A DNA stretch of 30,530 nt, taken from Gloeobacteraceae cyanobacterium SOY_34_metabat_159. GTDB taxonomy: Bacteria; Cyanobacteriota; Cyanobacteriia; Gloeobacterales; Gloeobacteraceae. A model generated the notes under the pieces. The model saw only the letters and a program-made list of their open reading frames with translations. It searched no databases and was not told the DNA's origin. The translations under genes and the position numbers were made by a program. The DNA is taken from contig JANNPH010000071.1 in assembly GCA_031399965.1 (NCBI GenBank), forward strand, positions 1-30,530. Reading direction: 5' to 3'. Shown one piece after another: positions 16,497 through 16,832 of this stretch (position 1 is its first letter; each line of letters starts with the position of its first letter).

Positions 16497-16832
16497 GTGG
16501 TTTCACCTTCTAAACAACGCAAGCGCGGCGTCATCCTGACGCCCGAAGGCTACCGGCGTCTGCAAGAAGCCAGGCGTCAGATCGAGCGCCAGGAAAACCT
16601 GGGTGGGCGCTATTCCCTTGAAAACTTGAGCGAGCGCACCGGCCTCGCACCCCGGACCGTCACCCGCGTGCTGGCCTGCGCGGAGGGCGTCGACAAGCAA
16701 ACCCTGGAGCAATTGTTCTGGGGTTTCAGCCTGGAGCTGACCCGGCGCGATTACACCAGCGTCGGAGCAAGACCTGCCGTCCCGGAGCCTGCTGTGCCGT
16801 CCCGGAGCCTGCTGTGCCGGATACGCGCTTGA
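16497..16832 (+). CDS. N-terminal helix-turn-helix fragment of the split STAND (NB-ARC/WD40) gene; possibly a pseudogene piece
   Basis: The start is GTG 16497. The sequence KRGVILTPEGYRRLQEARRQIERQENLGGRYSLENLSERTGLAPRTVTRVLACAEGVDKQTLEQLFWGFSLEL matches the HTH module that normally forms the N-terminus of cyanobacterial NTPase-WD40/TPR proteins. The ORF ends at 16830-16832, out of frame, immediately after the 20-bp duplication. Confidence 0.7.
   Translation: MVSPSKQRKRGVILTPEGYRRLQEARRQIERQENLGGRYSLENLSERTGLAPRTVTRVLACAEGVDKQTLEQLFWGFSLELTRRDYTSVGARPAVPEPAVPSRSLLCRIRA
16775..16819. repeat. 20-bp perfect tandem duplication (2.25 copies) of TGCCGTCCCGGAGCCTGCTG
   Basis: Unit 1 is 16775-16794. 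Unit 2 is 16795-16814 and is identical. A partial third copy, TGCCG, occupies 16815-16819. Confidence 0.95.

Follow-up and report, generated by a model that had tools for sequence, protein, structure and literature searches.

The locus described here raises the question whether two overlapping ORFs, one for an HTH domain and one for an NTPase with WD40 repeats, are two genes or a single broken gene, and what kind of event placed a tandem repeat where they meet. Both ORFs lie in the window, by which we mean the whole stretch of 30,530 nt that was analysed. Direct reading and a script located the unit TGCCGTCCCGGAGCCTGCTG twice head-to-tail at 16775–16814, followed by TGCCG at 16815–16819. Tandem Repeats Finder returned the interval 16775–16819 with a period of 20, 2.2 copies (2.25), 100 % matches and a score of 90. 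These three readings confirm the perfect 20-bp tandem duplication that the initial annotation had reported. Tandem Repeats Finder detected no comparable repeat elsewhere in the window, and the 20-nt unit had no second locus within it. The two copies are contiguous and identical, with no intervening or foreign sequence between them, and the inserted copy could be either copy 1 or copy 2. At the duplication junction, ...GCCTGCTG is followed directly by TGCCGTCCCGGAG...; the string CCTGCTGTGCCGTCCCGGAGCC after one full unit is specific to the duplicated allele, and AGACCTGCCGTCCCGGAGCCTGCTGTGCCGGATACG is specific to the single-copy allele. No short-period self-match in the 30.5-kb window was longer than the one of 25 bases at offset 20, compared with a maximum of 13 bases in 20 shuffles of the window. 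For a 25-base run, taking all periods of 4 to 100 into account, the i.i.d. expectation was ~1e-8. The 20-bp duplication is far beyond chance.

The ORF table contained the two ORFs as they had first been described, an HTH ORF stopping at 16830 and an NTPase-WD40 ORF in another frame, with an overlap of 19 nt between 16497–16832 and 16814–20098 (Table 1). Residues 1 to ~87 of the upstream ORF form a conserved domain, putatively an XRE-type HTH, after which a linker follows. Its final 12 residues (SRSLLCRIRA and the two preceding ones) are out-of-frame read-through to the TGA at 16830–16832. With the inserted copy, the reading frame moves by +20 nt (equivalent to −1), and in the window the output domain is not on the same polypeptide as the NTPase but severed from it by the frameshift. 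When one 20-nt copy was deleted in silico, a single ORF of 1193 aa with the junction ..GARPAVPEPAVPDTRLNLGDAPDVSAFHGRTEEL.. was obtained, which agrees with the earlier prediction of an exact fusion of ~1190 aa. Addition of a third copy left the frame broken (121-aa ORF). The upstream GTG start (16497) was called likewise in the Logan contig L002 and in Gloeobacter morelensis. As for the GTG of the downstream ORF, it had been placed inside copy 2; it overlaps this copy without lying wholly inside it, as 16814–16816 consists of the last base of copy 2 and bases of the trailing TGCCG. The GGAG ahead of this GTG is also present, in frame, in the intact allele together with the GTG, and the pair was therefore not created by the duplication.

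Table 1. Positions in the window of the disrupted gene, the duplication and nearby sequence features
Feature	Position	Strand	Evidence
Entire STAND gene, disrupted: putative XRE-HTH, NB-ARC, pentapeptide repeats, 14 WD40	16497–20098	+	One 1193-aa ORF minus one copy
Upstream ORF, 111 aa, stop TGA 16830–16832	16497–16832	+	ORF table
Downstream ORF, 1094 aa: NB-ARC NTPase, pentapeptide repeats, 14 WD40 repeats	16814–20098	+	ORF table, profile matches
Copy 1 of the 20-nt unit TGCCGTCCCGGAGCCTGCTG	16775–16794	+	Direct reading, Tandem Repeats Finder, script
Copy 2 of the 20-nt unit	16795–16814	+	Absent from L002; no repeat in G. morelensis
Third TGCCG, right-hand microhomology arm of the single-copy allele	16815–16819	+	L002 comparison
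GGAG, possible Shine-Dalgarno, 6 nt upstream of GTG 16814	16804–16807	+	Sequence reading; putative function
Two derived synonymous SNPs, CGT ACA (CGC ACC in L002 and G. morelensis)	16873–16876	+	Alignment

At the upstream end of the gene, an ATG at 16481 with GGAGG 4 nt upstream opens an ORF of 10 codons (MAASIRGFTF and a stop; window 16471–16513) that overlaps the STAND GTG start at 16497 in another frame. At the equivalent of 16481, G. morelensis has ACG for ATG and no GGAGG. Because it is not conserved in G. morelensis, the 10-codon ORF is probably fortuitous.

Profile searches identified NB-ARC (PF00931; 50.1 bits vs a cut-off of 23.5 bits) at residues 123–331 of the fused protein and 14 stretches of WD40 (PF00400; 528.9 bits) in the downstream ORF. 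A pentapeptide repeat segment was matched in the N-terminal 560 aa of the fused protein, and the Walker A sequence GMGGVGKT was invariant across the homologue alignment. For the 111-aa ORF, no Pfam family was matched at E ≤0.01; the sole match was HTH_AsnC-type with an E-value of 0.09. Homologues are labelled 'XRE-family HTH' by one data source (JGI). We modelled the N-terminal domain with AlphaFold from 17 sequences (pLDDT 75) and obtained helices at residues 16–33, 41–48, 52–60 and 67–76. The top PDB matches of this model in Foldseek were nearly all XRE/Cro-type proteins (HipB, SinR, DdrO, C.Esp1396I, lambda cI and MBF1) with probabilities of 0.95–1.0, but weak E-values (0.03–0.15; none ≤0.001) and TM-scores of 0.39–0.56 (query) and at most 0.75 (target). 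Because of this resemblance in predicted fold to XRE-type proteins, it is reasonable to call the N-terminal domain an HTH. The order HTH-NTPase-repeat that had been assigned by eye thus holds, with NB-ARC and WD40 supported by profile and the HTH by predicted fold. PADLOC matched no anti-phage defence model, and NCBIfam gave only sub-threshold NTPase similarities, among them a weak one to the AfsR NTPase region (E 1.8e-4, far under the cut-off).

With its NB-ARC domain (GMGGVGKT as Walker A), the 14 WD40 repeats arrayed at its C-terminus and an N-terminal output domain, the gene resembles NB-ARC/AP-ATPase STAND proteins with WD40 repeats, i.e. Apaf-1-like proteins and the bacterial NLR-like proteins of filamentous or multicellular bacteria. 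It differs from them in that the output is a putative XRE-type HTH instead of a death-like, protease or TIR domain, and in that this domain has been severed by the frameshift in the window. STAND transcription regulators such as MalT and AfsR/SARP likewise combine an NTPase, a DNA-binding domain and a repeat sensor. However, MalT carries a C-terminal LuxR-HTH and AfsR an N-terminal SARP domain, whereas the Gloeobacter gene has a putative N-terminal XRE-HTH, and by score it is not a member of the MalT/AfsR family. Within the WD40 array, at 18726–19014, two to three units of 126 bp are nearly identical in DNA, and there are two occurrences of the peptide LSFSPDGLTIASASQDETIKLWQV. Recent duplication or conversion of repeats within the gene is suggested by this pattern, a process known for the WD40 arrays of STAND/NLR-like proteins. 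In both Logan assemblies, the sequence breaks inside this array or just ahead of it.

The window derives from a Gloeobacter. Its neighbour proteins cluster at an identity of at least 90 % with those of G. morelensis MG652769 (exact look-ups) and were also found in Logan assemblies of sequencing runs. The syntenic locus of G. morelensis (L004, CP063845.1) comprises PKS, PPTase, ABC and HlyD genes, a 256-aa gene, a 1192-aa gene, MarR and two KS genes. The 1192-aa gene is a single, intact orthologue with 94.7 % full-length amino acid identity to the fused window protein and one gap. Its linker, GAAVAREPAAPDTR, has one-copy length, and the underlying DNA contains no repeat and is diverged at the repeat site (GCCGCTGTCGCCCGTGAGCCTGCCGCCCCG). 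Contig L002 (3973 nt), assembled from the run SRR20217204, was aligned with window positions 13953–17945 and revealed seven mismatches and exactly one gap, of 20 nt. It carries a single copy of the unit. Identity to the window over 4 kb is 99.3 %, and the gene call gave an open frame that starts at the equivalent of 16497 and reaches the end of the contig. A second Logan contig, L001, extended the comparison from 17920 onwards with one mismatch in 8.8 kb. L002 is the one conspecific comparison that covers the duplication site. The contigs L006 and L007 from a third lineage (SRR23898725; 98.3–99.1 % identical) and L005 and L008 from G. morelensis runs cover sequence outside the linker.

More distant relatives gave the same picture. 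In 16 of the 16 cyanobacterial homologues retrieved, which are 42–57 % identical over the N-terminal region, the N-terminal domain is fused to the NTPase. When 12 of these were aligned together with the G. morelensis orthologue and the fused window protein, the duplication site fell in a length-variable linker between the conserved '...DY' end of the HTH and the likewise conserved 'DWGEAxDVSxFYGRxEEL'. Most of the best 120 homologues had 99–100 % query coverage, and the same domain order is common to hundreds of cyanobacterial homologues. Because G. morelensis, L002 and all 16 homologues have the fused gene, the single-copy, fused state is ancestral and the two-ORF state derived. The initial annotation had also considered orthologues divided at the equivalent position with no repeat there, and this set contained none.

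In JGI metagenomes, neither peptide patterns nor the 25-mer gave a match. The products of both ORFs were absent from a protein collection (exact look-up), as was the longest-ORF version of HlyD; the absence of the two ORF products fits a pseudogene annotation in the source record. A scan of a genome-contig collection, evidently one without G. morelensis and the source genome, returned only a Coleofasciculus homologue of 53 % identity, and the first protein search also missed the 95 %-identical G. morelensis protein, meaning that absence there is no evidence of absence. No literature on the run SRR20217204 was found.

Six of the seven SNPs between the window and L002 are synonymous. Polarised with G. 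morelensis, the derived state is in the window at 15267, 15270, 15293, 16873 and 16876 and in L002 at 15829 only; at 15255 each of the three sequences has a different base. The SNPs at 16873 and 16876 are 60–80 nt from the repeat. Because the SNPs are mostly synonymous and derived states occur on both sides, the two haplotypes represent two real, closely related lineages and not noise. We also noted that the SNPs are unevenly distributed. Four of the seven fall within 39 bp (15255–15293) of the HlyD-type gene on the minus strand, one of them being non-synonymous (L34V), compared with one in the 8.8 kb downstream of 17920. This pattern points to a short tract of inter-strain recombination or conversion.

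Relative to G. morelensis, dN/dS of the STAND gene was 0.11 overall (HTH 0.06, NB-ARC 0.09, repeats 0.13), and the gene contains no other stop or frameshift. It was thus under purifying selection for most of its divergence from G. morelensis. Since the copies are identical, the gene is otherwise free of lesions and dN/dS is 0.11, the disruption is recent, indeed very young.

How the duplication arose can be read from its end-points. In L002 the single-copy allele is GACC-TGCCG-TCCCGGAGCCTGCTG-TGCCG-GATACG, in which the two TGCCG are 15 nt apart, and in the duplicated allele TGCCG occurs at 16775, 16795 and 16815. The microhomology is exactly 5 nt long (the flanking bases differ), and four of the five bases are G or C. 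A randomly placed 20-nt duplication would be bounded by a microhomology of at least 5 nt at 0.6 % of positions. The layout of microhomology, spacer, microhomology, spacer, microhomology is the signature of a microhomology-mediated tandem duplication (MTD) by replication slippage. It also changes the meaning of the trailing TGCCG, first described as a partial third copy: the motif is there, and it is explained by the microhomology arm and not by an evolved repeat. Because the single-copy gene contains 562 pairs of five-nt microhomologies with a spacing of 6–100 nt, 260 of them frame-shifting, the duplication site is not special among such pairs.

We consider it probable that the window carries a recent, lineage-specific MTD in the variable HTH/NB-ARC linker of a Gloeobacter STAND gene, and that this MTD is an inactivating but intrinsically revertible frameshift. 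Among the three options originally proposed, a recent inactivating mutation is the best supported. According to this model, the ancestral allele would have been ...GACC TGCCG TCCCGGAGCCTGCTG TGCCG GATACG.... A nascent strand ending at the second TGCCG would have re-annealed to the first TGCCG, 20 nt upstream, and the 20 nt would then have been copied a second time. The frameshift would uncouple the HTH output from the sensor/NTPase, and loss of regulator function is the most likely consequence as judged from the sequence. A frameshifted-pseudogene call would be expected from NCBI's pipeline. With GGAG upstream, an HTH-less protein might be made from GTG 16814 via coupling or re-initiation, and this product of the intact downstream ORF could be functional. 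As with other short tandem duplications, reverse slippage could collapse the duplicated allele to the wild type at an elevated rate. The expected reversibility is a by-product of the type of mutation and not an evolved switch.

MTDs have been characterized in Schizosaccharomyces pombe, where they are bounded by microhomologies of 5–8 bp and cause frameshifts, form at ~1e-6 to 1e-7 and revert at ~1e-4 (PMC8639346). There, long GC-rich microhomologies favour MTD formation, and MTDs make up about half of the fixed insertions >10 bp in natural isolates (PMC8639346). Such MTDs and the duplications that replication slippage produces in bacteria are the nearest known counterparts. The Gloeobacter duplication is like the S. 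pombe ssp1 MTDs (Dan et al. 2021, PMC8639346) in being a direct tandem duplication with nothing between the copies, in having a wild-type allele bounded by a GC-rich microhomology (5 nt vs 5–8 bp), and in causing an inactivating frameshift while close relatives keep the wild-type allele. It differs in the length of the unit, 20 nt vs 55–92 nt. Moreover, the ssp1 MTDs come from a genetic screen, whereas the Gloeobacter case is known from the sequence of a draft contig.

The strongest competitor of a genuine slippage mutation is an assembly or sequencing artefact, with an organism that has one copy and an intact gene. The sources proposed for such an error are the assembler, contig merging or gap closing, polishing with a mixed population and in-vitro polymerase slippage. 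De Bruijn assemblers commonly use k = 21, for which k−1 is 20, and an untrimmed overlap could yield 20 extra nucleotides; the unit length of the duplication is the same. The duplicated allele is known from one assembly and occurred in no other public assembly searched, and the independent assembly of SRR20217204, the sole other one covering the site, has a single copy. However, a join that is blind to sequence would be expected to hit a bounding microhomology of at least 5 nt only at the 0.6 % of positions given above. No other indel was found against 12.7 kb of independently assembled Logan contigs, and seven flanking genes (PKS, ABC ATPase, HlyD, the 255-aa ORF, MarR and two KS) match their G. 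morelensis orthologues in length, exactly or within 2 aa. The duplication also sits on a haplotype with synonymous SNPs of its own, a lineage separate from that of L002. Finally, usual assemblers end on a k that exceeds the 45 nt of the repeat, and the k-mers across the junction should therefore be derived from reads. An assembly error, one of the possibilities named at the outset, is thus conceivable but disfavoured by the microhomology at the end-points and by a contig otherwise free of indels, and we regard an artefact as unlikely.

Could the split instead be a functional gene fission, in which both ORFs are expressed through GGAG-N6-GTG coupling and give a two-component regulator of free HTH and NTPase-WD40 protein? 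The position of GGAG, 6 nt ahead of GTG 16814, and the 19-nt overlap of the ORFs would suit such coupling, and the downstream ORF is free of further lesions. On the other hand, all 16 homologues are fused, GGAG...GTG already exists in the intact allele and so was not made for coupling, and the HTH ORF terminates in 12 residues of nonsense frame. With identical copies, the split is also too recent for selection to be visible. Fission is very improbable on these grounds.

The least probable of the three is an evolved, slipped-strand phase-variable switch, in which one copy would mean an intact and two copies a split STAND regulator. Such a switch would be compatible with the occurrence of both one-copy and two-copy alleles among near-identical haplotypes, with the reversion of MTDs ~100 times faster than their formation (PMC8639346) and with the frame that a third copy leaves broken, so that only one vs two copies would act as on/off. 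Known contingency loci consist of many copies of units of 1–9 nt, whereas the window has two copies only, of a long unit of 20 nt. The closest relatives contain no repeat tract (one copy in L002, a diverged linker in G. morelensis), the window has no comparable repeat elsewhere, and the 562 microhomology pairs argue against a dedicated site. Furthermore, the one-copy and two-copy haplotypes also differ by seven SNPs, as expected for a mutation in a lineage and not for rapid switching. The phase-variable option put forward in the initial annotation is therefore weakly supported at most, on account of the missing tract in relatives and the two copies of a 20-nt unit. The Gloeobacter allele shares with bacterial contingency loci (Moxon, Bayliss and Hood) a change in copy number by strand slippage which, not being divisible by three, moves coding sequence in or out of frame. 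Unlike these loci, it has relatives with one copy or diverged sequence and no maintained tract, and the Gloeobacter gene encodes a cytoplasmic STAND regulator and not a surface or restriction-modification protein.

It is improbable that one-copy and two-copy alleles co-exist and interconvert as a rapidly reversible toggle in natural Gloeobacter populations. If they did, the toggle would disconnect the NB-ARC/WD40 sensor from its HTH output in a STAND gene between a PKS cluster and a MarR/ketosynthase operon, and would be a counterpart, in natural populations of a bacterium, of the reversible MTDs of fission yeast.

Three other candidates were rejected: programmed −1 frameshifting, as the only heptamer, G GGT TTC at 16721, is in the conserved HTH (WGF) 54 nt upstream of the repeat and relatives are in frame with no shift needed; a transposon target-site duplication, as there is nothing between the copies; and a CRISPR-like or structured repeat, as there are two abutting copies inside a coding linker.

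Taken together, the duplication is best explained as an ordinary slippage mutation of recent date, with a sequence error as the less likely option, and not as a new kind of switch. For annotation, this means that the two ORFs are to be treated as one frameshifted STAND gene and not as a small HTH regulator with a separate NTPase-WD40 protein, and that the duplicated allele is confined to a single lineage. No long-standing question is opened up by it, as STAND genes are numerous in cyanobacteria and such frameshifts are expected. Its value is that of a clean natural case of a microhomology-bounded tandem duplication in a cyanobacterium for which both the ancestral allele and an outgroup are available; it might help to track strains, or be used to test how such duplications revert in an organism that is polyploid and grows slowly.

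We made several minor observations on the genomic neighbourhood, in which the STAND regulator is placed between PKS-cluster genes and MarR/ketosynthase genes. Upstream, a secondary-metabolite cluster on the minus strand (2749–15392) contains genes for a thioesterase, an ABC exporter, a 2128-aa type I PKS (KS-AT-DH-ER-KR-ACP), a phosphopantetheinyl transferase, an ABC ATPase and an HlyD-type adaptor. In this stretch an additional MbtH-like gene was called in G. morelensis. Next to the cluster, the 255-aa ORF of the window (15436–16203, minus strand) had just one sub-threshold match, to a short-chain dehydrogenase. In L006 (equivalent to window 14773–15752, 98.3 % identical), its counterpart was called at only 63 aa, well before the end of the contig. 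Possibly the gene is disrupted in the L006 lineage, or else its coding status is doubtful.

Downstream of the STAND gene, at 20209–23814, are MarR, a small ACP-like ORF and two ketosynthase genes. In L008 (equivalent to window 20069–21315), which comes from the apparent G. morelensis run SRR12931218, MarR is split into ORFs of 117 and 57 aa. This is probably a frameshift due to assembly or read error, Logan contigs not being error-free either. Synteny with G. morelensis stops after the second ketosynthase gene (window 23827 onward vs L004 13623 onward). Past this point the window contains a TetR-family gene and MutS2, and G. morelensis contains genes for FAD synthetase and NDH-1 subunits; the end of synteny marks the breakpoint of a rearrangement or an indel.
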